Shown piece after piece: positions 1 to 16,565 of a stretch of 64,000 nucleotides of DNA. The translations under genes were made by a program, and so were the position numbers. The stretch spans positions 373-64,372 of the forward strand of contig CAZSRX010000021.1 of assembly GCA_964609675.1 (NCBI GenBank). The letters are read 5' to 3'. Origin of the DNA: an uncultured Bacteroidota bacterium. Its GTDB lineage: Bacteria; CLD3; SB21; JBBIRG01. Under the pieces are notes generated by a model. It made no database searches, had not been told where the DNA came from, and saw only the letters and a list, made by a program, of their open reading frames with translations. Position 1 is the first letter of the stretch, and the number at the start of each line of letters is the position of its first letter.

Positions 1-1753
1 TAGCCAGCCATTTTGTGTTCAGTTTAGGCGTCAGCGTAAAACGGAAAAACTTGCATTCCTCCACATTTTTTGTACCAGGCGCGTTTGCAGTAATTTCCAG
101 TTCAAAACAATCTTCCCTTTTAATCGGCATTCCCTCAGGTTCATTAATGGCGCCTGGTCTGAAATATAATTCGATTGTCGTTTTTTCTCCAGGGGCAATA
201 TTGGTGAATGACGGATCATCAGATAATCCGTAGATGTTGTCTCCTTTTGAAATATACATACCTGTCCTGAACAACTCGTCTTTAAACTGATTTCCTGTAG
301 TGTTGTGCCTGAGCCTGAAACAGCCTGATATTTTCTTCGGAAAAATCCTGTTACACCTGTTATGAATATCAAATTCTATCCGGTATTCTGTTTCTTCGTC
401 CCATTCGTAGGCTGGAATTTTTTCAGGAAACCCAACTATTTTCTGCAAATCCTGGTTACTATGGATAATCTCAAGAGAAACGGATGGCTTATATAAAAAG
501 AAAACAACCAGGTAAAGAAACAATAATATTCCTGCAATGATTATGGCCCATATCCACCACGGCATTCCGGGGGGCGGTTCAAAATTCAGTATGGCGTCCC
601 TCTCTGCGGACTGCACGGAGTAATAAAATGTGCCCTTCCAGTATGAATTCGGATTATAAACCATGTCAAATTTAAGAACCAAACCGACGCTCAGGTCCTC
701 TCCCCTGAAAATTGATGAAGAGATGTCGAACGGAGAAATGCTGTACATATTAGGATGGCCCTGAACCGGACGGAAATCAATGTCATAATTTGCTTCTGTT
801 CCCTTGTTCCTTAAATGAAAGGAAATGACCTTTTTCTGAATGTTATCCGGGTTGACGGGTTTCTGCCTGTTCTTTTCGCTGACATACATGCTGAAACTGA
901 AAGGATTCATCTTAAAAACAGACTGCTCCTGGTCCAGGGAAAGACTTTTCCTCTCGATTTCTATCACAGGTACATCCAAAAGGCGCAATACCGATACTTT
1001 AACAAGCATGGGATTAGCCGGATAAATGGGACGTTGTATGACAATTTCATAAACCGGTTCAAGCAGGAAGTTATTGTTGAAAAACTTCACCACTTCATTT
1101 TCGATATAATCAACTTTATTCCTGCTGTTGTCCCGGACAGCCAGTCGGTCGTTAAGCCCGATGCCTCCATCGCCGGAAACAAAGTCGCTGACCTGTATAA
1201 CAATTACCGTATCTGCGGATATTCTCTTATCCGAAAGATATGCGAGTGAAAAAGGGTATACATACCGTATCATCTGAAAATCATATTCCGGAAGTGATTG
1301 AATCCCTTTTAATATATCTGGAATCTCGTCGGCATTTTTTGCTTCCTGAGAGTGACGGAATACCGTATTTGAAAGACTGACAATGAAATCCGGGGAGGAT
1401 TTAGCTTTTGACTCACACAGCTGTATATCCTGTCCATTAATGCCGTGGGTCAGGAAATCCAGGCGGTCGTTCTTTTCTCTGTGATATAACGGCAGGTAAA
1501 GCTTAAAATGATCCATTACGTCCCGGTCTATACGGGCATTCTGGCTGATTTTTAATTCGGAGGATGTAAGCAATTGAATCAGGATGTCGTTAACTTCTCT
1601 ACGCATTTTACGGTCATGAGGCTGAAACTGGTTCCCGGATGAACCGGAAAGGTCATACAGGACAATAATATGCCGGTGAACCTGCTGAATCGGAGTTTGG
1701 GCCTGTAAAGCGCAAACTATGAAAGCGAATATAAGCAAAATGGCTTTCTTCAT
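1..1753 (-). CDS. vWA (von Willebrand factor A) domain protein with N-terminal signal peptide and C-proximal TM helix; start is complete at 1753, 3' end runs off the window
   Basis: Manual translation from the ATG at 1753 gives MKKAILLIFAFIVCALQAQTPIQQVHRHIIVLYDLSGSSGNQF..., i.e. a signal peptide followed by a DxSxS MIDAS motif. A later IQVSDFVSGDGG stretch is vWA-like, and a hydrophobic helix WWIWAIIIAGILLFLYLVVFFLY lies near residues 410-435. The frame is open to position 1. It is absent from the ORF track because there is no stop codon inside the window. Low GC. Confidence 0.6.
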   Translation of the reverse strand, partial: MKKAILLIFAFIVCALQAQTPIQQVHRHIIVLYDLSGSSGNQFQPHDRKMRREVNDILIQLLTSSELKISQNARIDRDVMDHFKLYLPLYHREKNDRLDFLTHGINGQDIQLCESKAKSSPDFIVSLSNTVFRHSQEAKNADEIPDILKGIQSLPEYDFQMIRYVYPFSLAYLSDKRISADTVIVIQVSDFVSGDGGIGLNDRLAVRDNSRNKVDYIENEVVKFFNNNFLLEPVYEIVIQRPIYPANPMLVKVSVLRLLDVPVIEIERKSLSLDQEQSVFKMNPFSFSMYVSEKNRQKPVNPDNIQKKVISFHLRNKGTEANYDIDFRPVQGHPNMYSISPFDISSSIFRGEDLSVGLVLKFDMVYNPNSYWKGTFYYSVQSAERDAILNFEPPPGMPWWIWAIIIAGILLFLYLVVFFLYKPSVSLEIIHSNQDLQKIVGFPEKIPAYEWDEETEYRIEFDIHNRCNRIFPKKISGCFRLRHNTTGNQFKDELFRTGMYISKGDNIYGLSDDPSFTNIAPGEKTTIELYFRPGAINEPEGMPIKREDCFELEITANAPGTKNVEECKFFRFTLTPKLNTKWLA

Positions 1754-1768
1754 TTTAACCTCCGGATT

Positions 1769-2416
1769 TTATCCTACTTTAATTCTTCCGATGGACTGTA
1801 TGGACCATTTATCCCCGTTTTTTCTGCAAAGGGCTGGTTTGATGAGTTGGGTGATTCTCAGGTCATTCTGACTTGACGCTACATCGACTTCAAATGATTT
1901 CTTAAAAACAAATGATGTGTTCTGATCGTAAGGAATGGCCCGTGTCGGCGCCAGCCAGTACAAGTCGTCCCACTGGAACAGAACAAAATAACCGGAAGCA
2001 TCGGCTTCAATCACGGGCTCTGAATCCTGACCGATTTCAGTGTGAAAAGCATCTAATTTAAGCGACACTTTTTTCGCGTCATGGTCAGTAATCCATTTTT
2101 TCAATTTTTCCCGGTCAGAGAGGCTTTGATTGAAAAGCTGAATAACCGAACTGATGTTTTTTTCTTTTTTTCCTTCAGTTTCCGGCAAAATGATTTCCGC
2201 TTTCTGCGCGGGAGATTTCTCATTGTCCGCAAACTTGCGTAATGCGGTTTTTAGTCGGTCTATATCCTCTTCTATCCCGGATAACCGGTCCTGAAAATCG
2301 TTTATTTTGCGGAATAATTGTCTTACTGATTTCCGCATTGAATAAAAAAGCCAGATAAACAAGATAATCATCACCGCATACGCGATAATGGCGATCAGCA
2401 TATTCGTAGTCAGCAT
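1769..2416 (-). CDS. hypothetical membrane-anchored protein: N-terminal TM helix, then a coiled-coil-like charged segment and a C-terminal globular part
   Basis: 215-aa ORF with hydrophobic N-terminus LIAIIAYAVMIILFIWLFY followed by a heptad-like charged region (RLSGIEEDIDRLKTALRKF). 15-nt gap to the downstream gene and 21-nt gap to the upstream gene, same strand. Confidence 0.5.
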   Translation of the reverse strand: MLTTNMLIAIIAYAVMIILFIWLFYSMRKSVRQLFRKINDFQDRLSGIEEDIDRLKTALRKFADNEKSPAQKAEIILPETEGKKEKNISSVIQLFNQSLSDREKLKKWITDHDAKKVSLKLDAFHTEIGQDSEPVIEADASGYFVLFQWDDLYWLAPTRAIPYDQNTSFVFKKSFEVDVASSQNDLRITQLIKPALCRKNGDKWSIQSIGRIKVG

Positions 2417-2437
2417 GGAGGCCCGCTTGTATAGGAT

Positions 2438-5400
2438 TTATGAAAAGGTTTTTCGGTCTTCTTGCATCTTTTTAATTAACGCCCTGGCGCCGATGATAAA
2501 CGGGGACTCCAGCACAATGTCGCTTTCTTTTCCCCTGAAAGCTCCCTGGATGGCGCTAAATACAACATTACGGTCAAATTTCAGAGGGTATATCAGCAAA
2601 TCATCACAGAAATTCAGGAATTCATGTTTGGCCATACCCAATTCGCAAAGTTCATTAAGAAGTTCAAATTTGGATAGGGTAGGATTTATCATATGGGCTT
2701 TATCGAGTAATATATAGTCGTTACGTGCTAGTTCATCCTTGTCCAGCAGGATTCCCGTTTCACCTACAATAACTGCTTTTGAATCTTTTTTAGTTATTTT
2801 AGAGACGGAGAATCCTTCCCTGATTTCATTGCCTATCTCGTTCTTCTGGTCCTTTGTGGATGAGATAGACTTCAGAAATTTGTTGTCTTCATGAATCAAT
2901 AGACCGCGGCATACTTCCTCTTTGGGTTCATCCGAAAGGCATATCGTTATTTGATCGGAACGGAGTTCTTCCCTGTATCCGATAGCGAAAGCCCCCCTGC
3001 CAAGTTTTTCATATACCTTACTGATATCCGGATACAGAAGCTTAAGTAGTTTGGAAGCATTGCCCCCGATGTGAACAGTTACGTTGCTAATTGCCGGATC
3101 CTGTTTGTAAAATAACTGGCCTAAAAAATAAAACATCGAAGCAAAACCCCAGAAGATGACGGAACGGCCGTACTTAACGGGCTCATCCTCCAGATTACCC
3201 GTAAAATAGGAAACAACATTTTCCCCTTTTTGGCTCATAATGTTGTTAATGATTGATCCGTTGTAAATACTGGAATTGGCGAACATATTCTGGATGCGCG
3301 CTGTCTTTACCTTACGCTCGGCCTCATTAGATCCGAAATTGGCGATGCTTACTATTTTTTTCATGAAAACATCAGATTTGCTGAACAAATCTTCAAACAG
3401 CAGAACACCGCCCATTCTGAATGAGAGGTTTTCTTTTATATAATTGCTTCCCTTTTTGCTGTCCCAAATAACCAGGTCTGTCGTTCCGCCCCCGATATCA
3501 ACGGAGACAAAATATTTACCGTTACCGGTTCCTACAATATCATCTTCCCTTTTTTCGGTACAGTACAAGGCGGTTGCGATTCCCTCATCGATGTCTATCT
3601 GTTTATCGTCAATATTTCTGAAATAACTGGTTTTGATATCAACACCGGTCGTTTCATAAACCGATTTTGCTGATTTTTCCCAGGTTGACTTGAAAATCGT
3701 TATCCGGTTTTTTTCAAAAGATAAGGGATAGCTCCATAAAATATGTACCTGCGACTTCTTCAGGTTATATTTAACATGATAAGCTATAAGCAGCATCAAC
3801 TGGGTGATGAACATATCGACCAACGGCATCATTTTCGGATCGGTTGTCCATTTAATCTGTGTGCGGATCTGCGAGGAAAACATTTTAGCGACATCGTCTT
3901 CCATTTTTTCAATATTCTGGAAAGGAATCATGCCATGAATAAACGAAATTCTCTGATTAGCGGCTTCTTTTTTGTAAAGTAAAGCCGTTGTTATCGGAAA
4001 TATGAAAGAATCCGATATGAAATTAGTTGACCGTAATACATTCGCATAAGGCGTGTTGTTGTTAAATACTTCCAGAGGCTTCAGATCATTGATTTCCATC
4101 CGTTTTTTGACCAACTGGCCGTCCAGTAAAAATACATTTGTATTGGAAGTGCCGAAATCGATGCTGACCTCAACAGATGTATTTTCTGTCCTTTCCGCGT
4201 TCGGAGCCTCTATCGCGAATATCCCGAGCGGCTCGCCTTCTCCCTGCAGGGCTTCTTTTTTTCCGTCAGGCAAATCCCTGACCGGAACGGATTGCAGTTC
4301 AATAATGGATGGAAACGATTTCAGACAGTAAACGGACAATTTATCCTCTACTCTGCTGGCAACAACATCAGGTTCATCTTTCATAGAGAAGACCTGAAGC
4401 CGTACATTTGTCTGTATATCTTCCGAATGTGAAAAGAGGCAATAATACCGGTTCCATGCAGGATCATTATATCTCGGCCAGATATCCAGCAGAGGTATAT
4501 TGTCATACTCAATAATATCTTTCGCGTAAAAATCTTTATGCAACGAATAACCGGCACCGCTTTTGTTCAGCTGAATGCGTACTTTAAACCGGTTCCCTGA
4601 ACTGCCCGGATCTTCCAGTTCTTCAATGAAACATTTATCATAATCAATCTCGTATCCCTTTTCTTTCAGGAAACGAAGCCTGACAGGAAAAGTGAATACG
4701 GGTTCCGTCCTGCCGCTTTTCCATTTAAGAGGTTTGATATATTGCGTGTTTATATTTTGGAGCTTGATTAATTTTTCGACAAATACCTGTTTTATGTCTA
4801 TGGGTAATTTGGCTTTTCTGGCGAATGTTGAGTAAAAGGAATTTTCACTTATATTGTTGTAGATAGAAAAAACAGCAGGAGATGCATGAGCAATAATTTT
4901 CTTCTCAATTTCTGCTTTCCATTTTTCTAAAAGCGAACATATTTCATGTCTTTTGTACTCTTTATTATCTGCCGGTTGAAATTGTTTAATTCGGGTTATG
5001 GTTTCATTAATCCAGTTATTTAAGATTGAAAGCATTGTTTCATCGACAGCAAATTTCGGGCATTTTAAAGGATCGGTAAATTTGAATTTTTGTGTTTCTT
5101 CGTTCTTAATGACCCAGGTAAAAGTGTCTGACGGGGCAGGTGCAGCATAGTCAGCCCCCGTAAAAACTAATGTTAAGGGCGAAAAACCGCCAAGAACTCT
5201 TTTCTTTCCTCCGGCAATATGCTTTATTAAATAAAACTCCTCTTCAGGCCAGTATTGATCATTAGGTTTCAGTTTTTTTACTATTCCTGTAAATCCGTCA
5301 TTCGCTAACTTTACTTTTATTATTTCAATTTTTATATCCAATATATCGCTGAAACATAATAATGCCAGAAGTCCTCTCCATTCATCCGTCACAAACTCAT

Positions 5401-5677
5401 GAGCAGGATGCTTAAACCCTTTATTATCCTTCTCAATTGCAAAATACAAAGCCTTATAGAATAGGTATGGACGAGCCCAGACTGTGGGTATTGAGGAAAT
5501 CATATCCGGGGTTTTATCCGTATCATGGATCATGATATCTCTTCCAAGGTTTTCGAGTTGGGAATCTCGGAAACCAACCCACTTACCGGGCTCGGGACTG
5601 TACTGCATACTATTGTTAACACAGACCACTTCCGGTAAAAAGGCTTTAGTCCCTGTCGGTTTTTCATTGTTTGGCAT
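2438..5677 (-). CDS. large (1079 aa) protein with an internal Hsp70/actin-fold (ASKHA) ATPase core
   Basis: Phosphate-1-like motif SIDFGTSNTNVF (compare Hsp70 IDLGTTNS) near residue 505 and phosphate-2-like motif VSVDIGGGTTDLVIWD (compare Hsp70 DLGGGTFD) near residue 735. About 500 aa of N-terminal and 180 aa of C-terminal sequence are unassigned. No signal peptide. Low GC. Confidence 0.6.
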   Translation of the reverse strand: MPNNEKPTGTKAFLPEVVCVNNSMQYSPEPGKWVGFRDSQLENLGRDIMIHDTDKTPDMISSIPTVWARPYLFYKALYFAIEKDNKGFKHPAHEFVTDEWRGLLALLCFSDILDIKIEIIKVKLANDGFTGIVKKLKPNDQYWPEEEFYLIKHIAGGKKRVLGGFSPLTLVFTGADYAAPAPSDTFTWVIKNEETQKFKFTDPLKCPKFAVDETMLSILNNWINETITRIKQFQPADNKEYKRHEICSLLEKWKAEIEKKIIAHASPAVFSIYNNISENSFYSTFARKAKLPIDIKQVFVEKLIKLQNINTQYIKPLKWKSGRTEPVFTFPVRLRFLKEKGYEIDYDKCFIEELEDPGSSGNRFKVRIQLNKSGAGYSLHKDFYAKDIIEYDNIPLLDIWPRYNDPAWNRYYCLFSHSEDIQTNVRLQVFSMKDEPDVVASRVEDKLSVYCLKSFPSIIELQSVPVRDLPDGKKEALQGEGEPLGIFAIEAPNAERTENTSVEVSIDFGTSNTNVFLLDGQLVKKRMEINDLKPLEVFNNNTPYANVLRSTNFISDSFIFPITTALLYKKEAANQRISFIHGMIPFQNIEKMEDDVAKMFSSQIRTQIKWTTDPKMMPLVDMFITQLMLLIAYHVKYNLKKSQVHILWSYPLSFEKNRITIFKSTWEKSAKSVYETTGVDIKTSYFRNIDDKQIDIDEGIATALYCTEKREDDIVGTGNGKYFVSVDIGGGTTDLVIWDSKKGSNYIKENLSFRMGGVLLFEDLFSKSDVFMKKIVSIANFGSNEAERKVKTARIQNMFANSSIYNGSIINNIMSQKGENVVSYFTGNLEDEPVKYGRSVIFWGFASMFYFLGQLFYKQDPAISNVTVHIGGNASKLLKLLYPDISKVYEKLGRGAFAIGYREELRSDQITICLSDEPKEEVCRGLLIHEDNKFLKSISSTKDQKNEIGNEIREGFSVSKITKKDSKAVIVGETGILLDKDELARNDYILLDKAHMINPTLSKFELLNELCELGMAKHEFLNFCDDLLIYPLKFDRNVVFSAIQGAFRGKESDIVLESPFIIGARALIKKMQEDRKTFS

Positions 5678-5696
5678 ATATTTTCTCCGGTATTAA

Positions 5697-7202
5697 CTAA
5701 TTGATGTTATAAACTTTCTGAACAAAATTATAGCTTGCCTGATAGAAAATATTCACTAATTTGGCGGAAGCAGAAGAAAGGCCGCTTTCCACTTTGACTT
5801 TTTTCAGGCATTCAATAAATTTTGTATAATCAGGAGTCAAACCACTCTCATTGAAAAGTACGGATGAAAAATCAGATTCCACATTGCGGCGTGTGTTGAT
5901 AAGTCTGACTACGGGATTGTCAAACCGATGGGTATCCCTCAGCCATTCAAAAAAGGAATAATGTCCTTCCCTCTGGAAAAAATCTCTAACGATAGCCAAA
6001 TATTGTTTTTCCCTGTCAGCTGTTAAATCATCATTTTTCTTGAAGAAATCCCTGATAACTTTCATTTCACCGGGAAATTGAGTAAACTGATTAGTGTTCT
6101 TGTAAAAATAGAGATAGACAGTTCCCATAATAGCTGCTGTCGCCATTTTTATCTTTATTTCGTCCCTTTCAAAGGAGTTTGACGGCATATCGTTCCAGGT
6201 CACCTCATTATTATTTTCACGCCCGCAATAACAATATTCTATTTTGGATTCGCTTCTTTTAGGTAGCGGCTGAGTGTCTTTAAAAAAAGCCATAGCGGAT
6301 AAGGCGGCAATTATTTCAATATAGTGAGGATGATTTGTCTGGCTTTCCCCTCCCACCGCAAATTTTCCAAGTGCCGTATCTTTAATGCTTTTTTCACCAA
6401 GTACATAAATTCTGTTATAAACACCCTTGATAAAAATATCATAATTCATCAGCGCGGCCTTAGTGCTGGAAATAAAATTTTCACTCTTCACAAATAAGCC
6501 GTCAATTTTCTTATCGGGCGTTGAAAAAGTGAAATAAGGCAGCATAATCATACCGCCGATGTAAATATTTTCTCTGTTTTCTGTAATATCAAGGATAAGT
6601 TTGGGTAAATTCGGGAATCCTGCCGCTCCGGTGCCTCCAAAGATGGAACCGCAGATAAATATTCTGATATCTGATGCTTTATTCTCCTTTATCAGTCTCA
6701 TAGTCTGGCCGATAGGGCTCTGTAAAACTTCAGGTTCGGCATTATCATAATCGTTAAAAATTTTAGAGCTTGCCATAACCACAGACCCAATCGCGGGATG
6801 ACCCCGGAAGCCCTGGTTGAGCTTAGTGCATCTCTCATCTTCGGTCAAAAGCAGATTACATAAATCCTGTTCGTCTTCAGACAGCATGTTATATTTTATG
6901 AGATCATGGAGGGATTCATCCCTTTTAACAGGCGACCAGTGCCAGTTGTACTCCTGGTGCTCATCGATTGGACCTTTTATAATAGGAGAGAAAAAAGGGA
7001 CATTCCCATAACCCATACCCCTGCACTTCTGATATAAATTCAGCAGTTTCATGGTCCTGCCAAGATTACCGTTGCCTTTATCCGGGTCAATGAGTAAAAC
7101 GTGCGTCTCATCAGCGCCCAATCCGCAGGCAGATAGATACGCAAAGGCTTCTGTCATTTGAATGCCTCGGCCGCCTATTCCGATCAATATATTGATAGCC
7201 AT
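5697..7202 (-). CDS. tubulin/FtsZ-superfamily GTPase-like protein
   Basis: N-terminal NILIGIGGRGIQ resembles the FtsZ T1 glycine loop (GxGGGGxN). GSIFGGTGAAGFP resembles the tubulin/FtsZ T4 signature GGGTG[ST]G. MNYDIF is a possible T7-like NxDxx element. 501 aa, no signal peptide or TM helix. Low GC. Confidence 0.55.
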   Translation of the reverse strand: MAINILIGIGGRGIQMTEAFAYLSACGLGADETHVLLIDPDKGNGNLGRTMKLLNLYQKCRGMGYGNVPFFSPIIKGPIDEHQEYNWHWSPVKRDESLHDLIKYNMLSEDEQDLCNLLLTEDERCTKLNQGFRGHPAIGSVVMASSKIFNDYDNAEPEVLQSPIGQTMRLIKENKASDIRIFICGSIFGGTGAAGFPNLPKLILDITENRENIYIGGMIMLPYFTFSTPDKKIDGLFVKSENFISSTKAALMNYDIFIKGVYNRIYVLGEKSIKDTALGKFAVGGESQTNHPHYIEIIAALSAMAFFKDTQPLPKRSESKIEYCYCGRENNNEVTWNDMPSNSFERDEIKIKMATAAIMGTVYLYFYKNTNQFTQFPGEMKVIRDFFKKNDDLTADREKQYLAIVRDFFQREGHYSFFEWLRDTHRFDNPVVRLINTRRNVESDFSSVLFNESGLTPDYTKFIECLKKVKVESGLSSASAKLVNIFYQASYNFVQKVYNIN

Positions 7203-7233
7203 AAATAAATGCTCCCTTTATTTATATTAATTT

Positions 7234-7722
7234 CTATCCGATATGTACTTTGCAGGGTATCCTAAGCCAGGGAATTACTTTTGTTGTAAAAGAAGGTCGA
7301 AAGATATGTGACAGTGACCAATAAAGCAAAATATATTCAATTAAGGCTGTATATATCGCATAAAAAGTATTCGGCAGCGTTAATAAAGCCTCAAAACCCA
7401 GGTACTCCTCTATAGCAGGATAAGAATGAGTTGGTAAACTTAAACAACGCAGTAAGACTATAACAGCTATCAATACAATACCAATCAACAAAAAAAGAAA
7501 CCAGCCCTTCAGCGGACGATAAGCCTCCGTTATATCTCTTGGTACTAATTTCTTTTTTACGACATAATACATTACTAGGATAGTGATGATTGCAATAAAA
7601 ATTACTATCAAAAAATTATCAGTCAGAAATTCGGACCATTTCTGGGCGGTATAGTTCATGGGCTGTTTCCCGATACCTATCAACTGCAAGAGTTTATGCA
7701 ACATATCTTTAACTCCTTTCAA
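7234..7722 (-). CDS. small integral membrane protein (2-3 predicted TM helices)
   Basis: 162-aa ORF with hydrophobic segments FLIVIFIAIITILVMYYVV, WFLFLLIGIVLIAVIVLL and AIYTALIEYILLYW. 2-nt gap to the upstream vWA gene. Confidence 0.5.
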   Translation of the reverse strand: MKGVKDMLHKLLQLIGIGKQPMNYTAQKWSEFLTDNFLIVIFIAIITILVMYYVVKKKLVPRDITEAYRPLKGWFLFLLIGIVLIAVIVLLRCLSLPTHSYPAIEEYLGFEALLTLPNTFYAIYTALIEYILLYWSLSHIFRPSFTTKVIPWLRIPCKVHIG

Positions 7723-7724
7723 TA

Positions 7725-8972
7725 TTAATAAATCGCAAGATAAAACCGACCTATGATTTGCGGGTTAATTTCAGCAGACAAAACAAGCAGTTTTTTTGTG
7801 AAATCATATAAATAAGGCGTTTTCGATCCCGGATTTTTCGCGTTATCGGTTGACCATTCTTTTATCCATTCAGGGTATACAACAGTGGGGCTGAATGATG
7901 CCTCACAGTAAAAAGCATACCAGAGTTTTTTCATGATCGGAGCGAGTTGCAGTTTTATCTGTGTTTCAAATTCACCATTTTCATTTATCCTGAATGCTTC
8001 AACCGATTTGATTTTTACAAGCTTGTCTTCTTTTTCTGCCGGTCTGTCAGATTTTATTATTTTTTTTAGAACATTAAGAGATACGTTACAAATCTGGGAA
8101 TCTGTGTTTGTCGTATAAAAAATCTGATAATCTTTAATAAACTTTCCTTTAACCGATACATTCAGATAACCAGTGCTTTGCCCTTCAAATTCAATGATTT
8201 TATAATTCTTAACTCCGGTTTCAGCCGGAACCGTCAATAACGATGAGCTTTCTTTATCGACTTTCAAGACAACTTCCGATTTCTCAACCGCCTCAGAACC
8301 GGAGACAAACAGATATTCGGTTTTCAGGCCGGGAATTGTTCTGGCATCCTCTGTGATGATGTTCACCAGTTTCTGACTATGTGATCGATGGCCGAAAACA
8401 AACATGTAAAATTGCTGGGTTTTTGTCTGAAAACCCAGCAGATAAAAATCATTCTTACTTAGTATCCATTTTGATATTTCCTCAACGACACCCAGTATAT
8501 CTGGTTTAAAATCGATCAAAGGAATGCCGTCGGTTATAATTATATTGATGGAACTGGTATTCAGAGTATCCCCGACAAAGAGGCGCATCACTTTCTTGAT
8601 ATCAGTATCCCCCCTATATTTTACAGGATTTTCTATTTCATCGATCAGGCGGTCATCGGATAAATTCTGTATATCAGCATCAAAACTATGGTATCTTCTT
8701 TGGCATTTGACATAGGATGTTTTAAGAGTCAGCGCGAATTTTGTCATCAAGCTGATATACATTTTATCCCGGGCATAACTGACCATAGAACCTGAACGGT
8801 CAAAATATATGCTTATATCTTCAAGTTCTTTCACAGCCACTGAATTTTTATCAAAAATTTCTTGAACAGTTTTCCATTCCGGAGGATCATCTTTGCATGA
8901 GTTAAAAAAGAAACCGGTCATCATCAAAAATATCACGAAATATTTTATTACTACCTTTTTTGTATTAATCAT
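7725..8972 (-). CDS. vWA domain lipoprotein (first gene of the low-GC operon)
   Basis: Lipoprotein-like N-terminus MINTKKVVIKYFVIFLMMTGFFFNSC (lipobox FNSC). Complete MIDAS triad: DRSGS (DxSxS), GDTDI (T) and IIITDG (D). RBS GGAGAAAGG lies 3 nt upstream. Confidence 0.65.
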   Translation of the reverse strand: MINTKKVVIKYFVIFLMMTGFFFNSCKDDPPEWKTVQEIFDKNSVAVKELEDISIYFDRSGSMVSYARDKMYISLMTKFALTLKTSYVKCQRRYHSFDADIQNLSDDRLIDEIENPVKYRGDTDIKKVMRLFVGDTLNTSSINIIITDGIPLIDFKPDILGVVEEISKWILSKNDFYLLGFQTKTQQFYMFVFGHRSHSQKLVNIITEDARTIPGLKTEYLFVSGSEAVEKSEVVLKVDKESSSLLTVPAETGVKNYKIIEFEGQSTGYLNVSVKGKFIKDYQIFYTTNTDSQICNVSLNVLKKIIKSDRPAEKEDKLVKIKSVEAFRINENGEFETQIKLQLAPIMKKLWYAFYCEASFSPTVVYPEWIKEWSTDNAKNPGSKTPYLYDFTKKLLVLSAEINPQIIGRFYLAIY

Positions 8973-8975
8973 TTA

Positions 8976-8984
8976 CCTTTCTCC
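8976..8984 (-). promoter_or_regulatory. Shine-Dalgarno (GGAGAAAGG) for the vWA lipoprotein gene; the AT-rich 8985-9280 region upstream presumably carries the operon promoter
   Basis: The reverse complement of 8973-8984 reads GGAGAAAGGTAA immediately before the ATG at 8972. Upstream DNA is more than 75% AT with no convincing ORF. Confidence 0.4.
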
Positions 8985-9280
8985 AACAAGATTAAATTTT
9001 CATTAAAAATATTTATTAAAAAAAACCTCTTGATTTTGATATAAAGACATTATTTGATGATTTATATTTAGATATGACTCAATATGCAAAAAAAGAACCC
9101 TTTTTAAATAAAGGCCCCTCTAAAAATTACCTTCTTTTGACAAAAAATAAGCATAAACATTTTAATATTCAAATTATTTTACTCTTCCAACCTCTTTATT
9201 GCGTCTTAATCCGTTCTTTTAGCCGTAAAACGCATATTTTAAGAGAAAAAGCTGATCAAGTATTTCATGACCGGCTCCTA

Positions 9281-9329
9281 TTTAAAAAAAGTTAAAAATC
9301 TCCTGTAGGATACGGTTTATAGGAGATTT
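9281..9329 (-). terminator. rho-independent terminator downstream of sucD
   Basis: Inverted repeat AAATCTCCT...AGGAGATTT at 9296-9329. On the minus strand it is followed by TTAACTTTTTTT (plus-strand A-run 9283-9290), just after the sucD stop at 9353. Confidence 0.4.
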
Positions 9330-9352: not shown

Positions 9353-10333
9353 TTATTTTTTCTTGCTTTTTTTCGTGCTATTTTTTGGGGCGGTCTTTTT
9401 CACGGATTTTTTTGGCGCCGGTTTGTGCGGATACTTTTTTTCGAGTATCTGCTTGACGGTTATGCCGATATCGGCGGGGCTTTTGACTACGTGAATGCCG
9501 GCGGCGGCGAGGGCTTTCATTTTTTCCGCCGCGGTGCCTTTACCACCGCTGATAATCGCGCCGGCGTGGCCCATGCGGCGGCCCGGGGGCGCGGTCTGGC
9601 CGGCGATGAACGCGACGACCGGTTTTTTGAAATGCTTTTTAATCCACGCGGCCGCTTCTTCTTCCGCCGTGCCGCCGATCTCGCCGATCATCACAACCGC
9701 GTCGGTGCCGTCATCTTCGGCAAACAACTGAATGGCGTCAATAAATCGCGTGCCGATTACGGGATCGCCGCCGATACCGATGCAGGTGGACTGCCCGATT
9801 TTCAGCGTCGTCAGCTGATGGACGGCTTCGTACGTCAATGTGCCCGAGCGTGAGATAACGCCCACACGTCCCGGCCGGTGAATGAACGCCGGCATGATGC
9901 CGACTTTGCATTTGCCCGGCGAAATGATCCCCGGACAGTTCGGCCCGATAAGCCGGCAGTTTTTATCTTTTAAGAAATCATACACCTTAACCATGTCCTT
10001 GGTTGGTATCCCCTCGGTGATACAGACAATCAGACTAATGCCGGCTTCAGCGGCCTCTAAAATCGCGTCCGCCCCAAAGGCCGGAGGAACAAAAATCACC
10101 GACGTGTTCGCCCTCGTCGCCTTGATCGCTTCCGCCACCGTGTTAAACACCGGCACGGCATACTTCAGTTTGTCCGTATCATTCCCTTTATACTTCATGC
10201 CGCCCTTGCCGGGTGTAACGCCGCCGACGACATAGTTGCCGTACTGCGTCATCTGGCTGGTGTGGAATGTGCCTTCTTTTCCGGTTATCCCCTGCACAAT
10301 CAGCCGGGTTTTTTTGTCAACAAGAATGCTCAT
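9353..10333 (-). CDS. sucD: succinyl-CoA synthetase (ADP-forming) alpha subunit with an unusual lysine-rich C-terminal tail
   Basis: [28 protein letters not shown]...[26 protein letters not shown]...[14 protein letters not shown] are canonical SucD CoA-binding and ligase motifs. About 35 extra C-terminal residues: [28 protein letters not shown]. Confidence 0.85.
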
Positions 10334-16532: not shown

Positions 16533-16565
16533 CCCCGACCGGTTTGGGTCAGGGTATTTGAAGCG

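Follow-up and report, generated by a model that had tools for sequence, protein, structure and literature searches.

A giant predicted ATPase of actin/Hsp70 fold from an uncultured Bacteroidota bacterium belongs to a widespread bacterial family encoded next to a tubulin-like GTPase

The stretch of DNA analysed here (the window) comprises 64,000 nucleotides (nt) of contig CAZSRX010000021.1 from an uncultured Bacteroidota bacterium (positions 373 to 64,372 of the forward strand; assembly GCA_964609675.1) and carries a gene for a protein of 1079 amino acids (aa), hereafter the giant, in which an ATPase core of the acetate and sugar kinases/Hsc70/actin (ASKHA) superfamily lies between large flanks of its own kind. 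The gene is directly preceded by one for a divergent tubulin-like GTPase, and both the architecture of the giant and this pairing recur in several bacterial phyla. The parts of the system are all of known kinds, namely ASKHA ATPases, FtsZl1 operons and ZorAB-type stators; undescribed in the searchable literature are the ASKHA family of about 1,100 aa and its obligate tubulin-like pairing. We make these structural and contextual statements with high confidence. Combining them, we consider it on balance probable that the pair constitutes the two-nucleoside triphosphatase (NTPase) assembly module of an envelope-surveillance system, most likely one of anti-phage or conflict defence, with membrane remodelling a close alternative. 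The gene, the parts of its product and its partner are as follows.

2438-5677, minus strand: ASKHA giant gene, ATG start, 1079 aa
4193..5677, minus strand: N-terminal region of the giant, aa 1-495, with an alpha/beta part and a beta-rich part
2888..4180, minus strand: ASKHA (actin/Hsp70-fold) ATPase core, aa ~500-930
4139-4159, minus strand: phosphate-1 motif DFGTSNT
3851-3853, minus strand: invariant K609
3584-3586, minus strand: catalytic-type E698
3476-3499, minus strand: phosphate-2 motif DIGGGTTD
3050-3067, minus strand: adenosine motif GGNASK
2438..2887, minus strand: C-terminal helical region, aa 931-1079 and the stop codon, from the secondary structure of the model
5697..7202, minus strand: divergent tubulin/FtsZ-superfamily GTPase, Tubulin_2/FtsZl1-like (PF13809), 501 aa

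The first-pass annotation, made from the sequence alone, had recognised the two phosphate motifs of the superfamily from near residue 500 onwards and put them about 230 aa apart. Both are present, DFGTSNT at aa 507-513 and DIGGGTTD at aa 727-734, but the true distance is 220 aa; the adenosine-type motif GGNASK follows at aa 871-876. The three motifs are conserved and stand in the order correct for ASKHA proteins, and the core has the duplicated RNase-H-like fold with the nucleotide between two lobes that defines the superfamily. A profile built from 14 family sequences matches MreB (E=1e-8), and one built from 62 sequences matches, among PDB entries, MreB (2.5e-9), an actin-family filament protein (2e-7) and FtsA (9e-4), in alignments that span both phosphate motifs. 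The AlphaFold2 model of the giant has a mean predicted local distance difference test (pLDDT) score of 63.6, with mostly 70-86 in the core, and a Foldseek search with this model retrieved Hsp70 nucleotide-binding domains (NBDs; E~2e-6, probability 1.0). By Foldseek score the actin-like group stands level with Hsp70 and Hsp110, and glucokinases are also among the fold matches, whereas the sequence profiles put MreB, the actin-family protein and FtsA first. The profile and fold matches thus place the motifs in an ASKHA fold and not in another one, as had been proposed; the core belongs to the actin/Hsp70 branch, within which Hsp70-like and MreB/FtsA-like affinities are inseparable on these data.

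The catalytic residues of DnaK include a lysine, K70, and a glutamate, E171. In an hhalign comparison, the family block tESvAAa...DIGGGTTD aligned with NEPTAAALAF...DLGGGTFD of Hsp70, which identifies E698 of the giant as the counterpart of the catalytic glutamate of Hsp70. The position of the invariant K609 is comparable to that of DnaK K70, the hhalign alignment itself covering only the block from E698 to phosphate-2. Conservation of the nucleotide-site residues, which the first-pass annotation had singled out for checking, is close to absolute: among 162 diverse family members D507, G509, K609, E698, D727, G729, D734 and S752 are conserved in 100% and G872 of the adenosine motif in 98%. Because the catalytic-type residues are invariant across these members, the core very likely has an active, nucleotide-hydrolysing site.

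Searches seeded with the single sequence returned a different family. The best matches of the giant were then to Ppx-GppA/exopolyphosphatase models, in Pfam (E=1.8e-4, below the gathering score), NCBIfam (2.7e-3) and PDB (0.15), and together with the glucokinases among the fold matches they would suit a core that acts as a small-molecule kinase or phosphatase (a sugar kinase, a Ppx/GppA exopolyphosphatase or a (p)ppGpp hydrolase) within a large scaffold, making or destroying a nucleotide or polyphosphate signal. These matches are sub-threshold, and the Ppx/GppA identity was overturned by the family profiles; we regard such an enzyme as very improbable.

A more serious question is whether the giant is a chaperone. 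The canonical DnaK architecture is absent from it, as the annotation had stated. In contrast to Hsp70/DnaK and Hsp110, it has no match to the Pfam HSP70 model (PF00012), even at E<=1, and no inter-domain linker, beta-subdomain of the substrate-binding domain (SBD) or lid; its NBD is internal, starting at about residue 500, and its C-terminus reads ...QEDRKTFS, without the EEVD tail of cytosolic eukaryotic Hsp70 proteins. The test with PF00012 was sensitive, given that both a 1141-aa protein encoded nearby (E=9e-22) and a 538-aa protein of locus L005 (E=4e-70; fetched loci are denoted by L numbers) match the model. An SBD was found neither by Pfam nor by PDB profiles nor by fold search. Nor does the operon of the giant encode the J-domain or GrpE partners of Hsp70, and DnaJ- or GrpE-like co-chaperones are likewise absent from the other operons. 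The giant could still be an Hsp70-like chaperone or unfoldase that remodels a client, such as the tubulin-like polymer or the exported or vWA-like proteins described below, with the beta-rich part of its N-terminal region binding the substrate. The Hsp70 NBDs among its fold matches are in line with this proposal, but the architecture just described, the preference of the sequence profiles for MreB, actin-family proteins and FtsA over Hsp70, the lack of co-chaperones and an N-terminal region without assignable fold all argue against it, and we consider it improbable.

The giant is cytoplasmic and free of transmembrane (TM) helices. Its N-terminal region of ~495 aa and C-terminal region of ~150 aa are without assignable fold or family, in agreement with the annotation, and no match to Pfam or PDB extends beyond the core. 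Both are nevertheless recognisable by conserved motifs: S-I-P-D-V-W-A-R-P (aa 62-70), H-P (90-91) and E-W-R-G-L-L (99-104) in the former, and E-P-x-F-I (aa 1057-1061; E1057 conserved in 87% and F1060 in 94%) in the latter. The C-terminal region is not an Hsp70 SBD, and the two flanks are family-specific.

The unusual position of the motifs is the only feature that would speak for an artefact, that is, a dnaK paralogue that is fragmented, chimeric or misassembled, or else a spurious open reading frame (ORF). The identical protein is present in three independent assemblies (JGI, Logan and NCBI), so the giant is not a misassembly; upwards of 1,300 diverged clusters have this architecture from end to end, the terminal motifs are conserved and the operon context is kept across phyla. 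A dnaK fragment is thereby ruled out and the chance of an artefact of any kind is negligible. Two opposite-strand ORFs that overlap the ASKHA gene, 2388-2717 (+) and 4053-4331 (+), of 109 and 92 aa, respectively, are without homology support and most likely spurious.

An exhaustive hidden Markov model (HMM) search of 1.84 billion representatives (clusters at 50% identity) recovered 3,312 relatives of the giant, 2,674 of them with E-values below 1e-10 and 1,327 below 1e-30. Among the top 150, alignments mostly run from end to end, the typical length being 1,050-1,200 aa. A word-indexed search had returned only 10-14 relatives, and the impression of a very rare family that it gave was an artefact of sensitivity. 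In the two plasmid records examined, RefSeq labels the members 'hypothetical protein', and one Belnapia member is named 'acetate and sugar kinases/Hsc70/actin family protein'. None of Pfam, NCBIfam and PADLOC has a model for the ~1,100-aa ASKHA family or its tubulin-like pairing, the searchable literature yielded no account of the family, and the phage collection contained no relatives. If our reading is correct, a widespread family of more than 1,300 clusters is thus missing from the models of all three resources. A Sericytochromatia contig (L025) encodes two paralogous giants in one operon (2-2539 and 5650-6375), separated by three genes that match a downstream component of ~270 aa.

The tubulin-like nature of the neighbouring 501-aa protein, also asserted in the first-pass annotation, is borne out by the Pfam Tubulin_2 model (PF13809), which it matches with E=7.6e-7 and 29.1 bits, above the cut-off of 27 bits, in the T4 region only; the Belnapia homologue reaches 33.1 bits. 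The protein has a T1-like loop, GIGGRG, and the T4 signature SIFGGTGAAGFP; Q288, N290 and E296 are candidate residues of a T7-type catalytic loop. In the family alignment the patterns GG.G and S.FGG.G..G.P are invariant, T4 taking the form S-I-F-G-G-T-G-A-x-G-x-P. Matches of the family to PDB entries are weak (CetZ/FtsZ at T4, E~0.02-0.05), and RefSeq names one homologue 'tubulin-like domain-containing protein'.

To assess linkage, an HMM for each operon component was mapped onto all fetched loci, with annotated plasmid loci and called-gene tables added. In 25 of the 25 distinct loci that could be assessed, a tubulin-like gene of ~460-560 aa lies directly upstream of the ASKHA gene on the same strand, which answers in the affirmative whether the homologues always adjoin such a gene; two further loci begin inside the ASKHA gene, so that their upstream side is unassessable. 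The linked loci come from Bacteroidota (Prevotella, Bacteroides luti, Flavobacterium, Pedobacter, Hymenobacter, Solirubrum, Gillisia, Roseivirga and Rikenellaceae), Alphaproteobacteria (Belnapia), Cyanobacteria (plasmids of Picosynechococcus and Gloeothece), Gemmatimonadota and Firmicutes. The two genes had been described as translationally coupled. They are adjacent, but in the window they do not overlap, a spacer of 19 nt with a GGAG motif lying between them; in homologous loci they often overlap or are 1-3 nt apart.

In one lineage the two genes are fused, as seen in three independent assemblies with the same operon context:

L029 3336-8018: gene for P0014, tubulin-like/ASKHA fusion protein, 1560 aa

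Residues 1-444 of P0014 cover the whole tubulin-like HMM and residues 532-1554 the ASKHA HMM, and BLASTP against the two window proteins gave E=5e-33 and 1e-14. This fusion is Rosetta-stone evidence for a physical or functional partnership of the tubulin-like and ASKHA proteins, and turns their physical interaction into a concrete, testable prediction. Collectively, the ASKHA fold, the unassigned flanks, the architecture that is not that of DnaK or a fragment of it, and the linkage to and fusion with a tubulin-like protein argue that the giant is a dedicated partner and not a general chaperone. This agrees with the assembly or remodelling factor suggested in the first-pass annotation, a role that we infer.

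The pair recalls FtsA and FtsZ, the actin-fold ASKHA tether and the tubulin-fold GTPase of the divisome; in a wider sense the giant invites comparison with the actin-like filament formers MreB, ParM, MamK and BeeR. However, the giant is three times larger than FtsA, with ~650 extra residues outside known folds, and no membrane-targeting helix was identified in it; the gene order is reversed relative to the FtsA/FtsZ pair, the tubulin-like gene coming first; and in place of FtsZ stands a divergent tubulin-like protein of Tubulin_2/FtsZl1 type.

The genes around the pair are the following; in the conserved cassette the order is exported lipoprotein, 3-TM protein, tubulin-like GTPase and ASKHA giant.

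7725..8972, minus strand: first cassette gene, predicted lipoprotein of 415 aa, signal peptide ending ...FFNSC
7234..7722, minus strand: small membrane protein with three TM helices, 162 aa (TTG start) or 156 aa (ATG at 7704)
1769..2416, minus strand: 215-aa protein in which a TM helix at the N-terminus is followed by a coiled coil and, C-terminally, a globular part
1..1753, minus strand: first 584 codons of the gene for the 1141-aa protein (full gene at L001 7520-10945)

In 23 distinct loci, the mapping placed a homologue of the lipoprotein upstream of the tubulin-like gene; these homologues are exported and ~410-570 aa long. The window protein carries a motif like that of vWA (von Willebrand factor A) domains with their metal ion-dependent adhesion site (MIDAS), YFDRSGSM ... 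ITDG, and the form DxSxS...ITD is conserved across the lipoprotein family. Between the lipoprotein and tubulin-like genes the other loci have an ORF of 127-172 aa with several TM helices.

Downstream of the giant the operons vary. The 215-aa protein has only weak matches of coiled-coil type, was not found in the other mapped loci and is specific to the operon variant of the window. The gene for the 1141-aa protein is complete in the identical contigs L001 and L002. Its product starts with a signal peptide, carries a vWA/MIDAS-like motif (DxSGS) and, after a TM helix, ends in a canonical HSP70 NBD (aa 584-957; PF00012, E=9.1e-22) without an SBD; no paralogy between the ectodomain of this protein and the 415-aa lipoprotein is detectable. 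It is predicted to be a membrane-spanning Hsp70-NBD protein and stands where most relatives encode a ZorAB-like stator; at the same position L005 encodes the plain 538-aa HSP70. In 17 loci a MotB/OmpA-like gene lies downstream, usually after a MotA/ExbB-like gene, and a stator is encoded in about two thirds of the loci. The two Belnapia stator genes match the PADLOC models of ZorA1, over most of the profile (E=2.7e-35), and of ZorB1, over its full length (E=2.1e-66), and ZorB-like matches were also obtained in L008 and L015; the stator is closest to ZorA1/ZorB1 of Zorya and not to Mot, Tol or Exb models. The proton-binding aspartate motif of MotB, YADLMT, is kept in L015 (14660-15274) and L009 (15629-16285). 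The MotB-like protein of Bacteroides luti (L026 13179-13832) is without the proton-binding aspartate (…FWPAFVGLLTIM…), and this stator may be inactive or use another residue. At the fusion locus the operon closes (L029 12279-13393) with genes for an aspartyl protease of retropepsin type and a nuclease of SNase type, both possible effectors.

Parts of this arrangement have been described before. PF13809 corresponds to the FtsZl1 family of Makarova and Koonin (PMC9871819), whose operons were predicted to function in membrane remodelling and include vWA and, often but not always, MotA/TolQ/ExbB and OmpA partners (Makarova and Koonin 2010, PMC2875224). Like these, the present operons combine a Tubulin_2-type GTPase, an exported protein (here with a vWA-like motif), small membrane proteins and, in the relatives, MotA and OmpA genes, and the Deinococcus example, with proteins of 478 aa and 109 aa followed by FtsZl1 of 1070 aa, MotA/TolQ/ExbB and OmpA (PMC2875224), has the gene order of the cassette. 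However, whereas classical FtsZl1 proteins are of ~1,000-1,200 aa and have a coiled-coil C-terminus (PMC2875224), the tubulin-like protein here is half that size (~500 aa) and is followed by a separate ASKHA protein of ~1,100 aa. The text of that study makes no mention of Hsp70 and no actin/Hsp70-like family is listed in it, the only related entry being a COG0443 gene in one Magnetospirillum neighbourhood table (PMC2875224).

Themes of tubulin with vWA and of HSP70 with GrpE are also known from the predicted DO-GTPase/GAP1-N2 conflict systems, which include tubulin, vWA-TM and HSP70-NBD-only proteins and have been proposed to form NTP-dependent assemblies (Kaur et al. 2020, PMC7159879). There the tubulin and HSP70 themes are non-overlapping and confined to the Firmicutes and the Actinobacteria, and the systems are defined by GAP1 and one or two P-loop DO-GTPases of the TRAFAC clade (PMC7159879). 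A Walker A motif is absent from all 50 proteins of the operons at six loci, so the operons described here are not DO-GTPase/GAP1 systems. SrfB, a 'virulence factor' of ~990 aa from the SrfABC toxin operon, is similar in size to the giant and matches it weakly at the DIGGGT motif (PF07520, E=0.088); it was rejected as a relative, the match being non-significant and covering 16 residues and the partners (SrfA, a kinase-like TM protein, and SrfC) being different.

The third comparison is with Zorya, whose ZorAB, a 5:2 rotary motor anchored to the peptidoglycan, detects attack by phage and brings in soluble effectors (PMC11890865, PMC11946911). The operons of the relatives resemble Zorya in encoding ZorA1- and ZorB1-like proteins with the MotB-type YADLMT motif, in effect a 5:2-type motor with a peptidoglycan anchor, and cytoplasmic partner proteins. 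They differ from it in the identity of these partners, a tubulin-like GTPase with an ASKHA ATPase and no ZorC, D, E, F or G (PADLOC detected none of ZorC/D, ZorE or ZorF/G in the cassettes of the window, L008, L015 and L003), and the operon of the window has no stator at all. None of the three described subtypes has tubulin- or actin-like partners (PMC11890865, PMC11946911), and no mention of 'Zorya-like' modules was found in the searchable literature. That the system is a fourth kind of Zorya-like system, with a tubulin/actin pair in place of a nuclease as its effector, is a tentative idea that we think rather doubtful.

How the components might work together can be outlined. The tubulin-like GTPase and the ASKHA ATPase would form a two-NTPase module at the inner face of the membrane, in the manner of FtsZ and its actin-like tether FtsA. 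An event at the envelope would be signalled through the membrane by the exported lipoprotein and the 3-TM protein, joined where present by the peptidoglycan-anchored, proton-driven stator. The tubulin-like protein would then assemble in a GTP-dependent manner, and the giant, by binding and hydrolysing ATP, would nucleate, tether or recycle this assembly, with its large extra domains supplying the contacts. The likeliest role of such a module would be envelope surveillance, as a kind of anti-phage or conflict defence comparable to Zorya, with membrane remodelling as a close alternative; taken by itself, a defence role falls a little short of probable. A bolder version, an unrecognised, inducible 'mini-cytoskeleton' of at least five phyla in which the divergent GTPase and the giant would assemble jointly on the inner membrane, controlled or powered by an envelope-spanning sensor (a surface or periplasmic lipoprotein, the 3-TM protein and, in most versions, a Zorya-type rotary stator), for anti-phage defence or envelope repair, appears more doubtful than not.

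Several observations weigh against this reading as a whole. The role is deduced from sequence and context; the partner qualifies as tubulin-like by a narrow margin (29 bits, the cut-off being 27; PDB E~0.02), so that polymerisation is not assured; and the lipoprotein, which the annotation had listed as a vWA neighbour, has the D-x-S-G-S ... ITD motif, but no Pfam or PDB profile supports a vWA domain in it. No PADLOC model matches the ASKHA or tubulin-like proteins, and neither the operon of the window nor L001 contains ZorAB-like stator genes; OmpA-family and MotA/TolQ/ExbB genes are also absent from the window's operon. Furthermore, the flanks of the cassette mix defence and housekeeping genes and do not form a consistent defence island: PADLOC analysis of 107 flanking proteins from 19 loci detected Type I restriction-modification, MADS (mad2, 3, 6, 8), Mokosh MkoA and PD-T4-6, while ribosomal S2/EF-Ts genes (L007) and TonB receptors are examples of the housekeeping side. 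The evidence from defence islands is therefore suggestive only.

The many housekeeping flanks and the lack of PADLOC matches to the core proteins would suit a housekeeping function in membrane remodelling, vesicle formation or biogenesis of an envelope structure, in which the NTPase pair shapes or constricts the membrane with MotAB-like proteins as its power source or anchor. Remodelling is what Makarova and Koonin proposed for the vWA/FtsZl1/OmpA/MotA operons (PMC2875224), and the partners are all membrane-associated. On the other hand, the spread of the system across phyla is patchy, the cassette occurs on plasmids and within an island of low GC, its downstream modules differ between loci, with a nuclease and a protease among them, and the stator is nearest to that of Zorya; this is the pattern of accessory conflict systems and not of core cell biology, and we consider housekeeping remodelling unlikely. 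As to mobility, relatives reside on cyanobacterial plasmids, one of them mobilizable, and in the window the cassette lies within an island of at least 19 kb with a GC content of 0.34-0.42 compared with ~0.51 in the rest (window 1-9300 against 9350-64000, the island continuing in L001 1-16835). Its boundary falls between the lipoprotein gene (end 8972) and sucD (9353-10333). No tRNA gene is located there, the only two of the window being tRNA-Leu genes at 16565 and 33545.

Should envelope surveillance by the pair be confirmed, two ancient cytoskeletal folds, those of tubulin and actin/Hsp70, would be joined in one dedicated module, and three separate literatures would be connected: the FtsZl1 remodelling operons of 2010, the tubulin and HSP70 themes of conflict systems, and the solved ZorAB motor. 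The question would then be how a ZorAB-type motor functions when its cytoplasmic partners are NTP-driven assembly proteins and not nucleases. Tractable hosts exist in Flavobacterium, Pedobacter, Hymenobacter and Bacteroides luti, as well as among the Picosynechococcus or Gloeothece plasmids.

Finally, some minor observations concern the cassette and its surroundings. Scans for promoters and terminators gave counts at the level of shuffled sequence and were uninformative. The lipobox cysteine of the 415-aa lipoprotein is followed by K-D-D (…FFNSCKDDPPE). A K-(D/E)2 sequence is said to have been described by Lauber and colleagues in 2016 as the surface-lipoprotein export signal of Bacteroidota, and if it applies here the lipoprotein would be on the cell surface. 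TM2-domain proteins, one of them with a zinc ribbon, are encoded beside the cassette at L005 5322-5750, L006 465-893 and L028 14711-15958, the hosts being an uncultured lineage and a Picosynechococcus plasmid. Proteins with a TPM_phosphatase domain (six) and LemA proteins (two) recur in the cassette flanks across the scanned loci, including L017, L018 and L020. The SucD-like succinyl-CoA synthetase alpha subunit encoded just outside the island (9353-10333, minus strand) has an unusual lysine-rich C-terminal tail.

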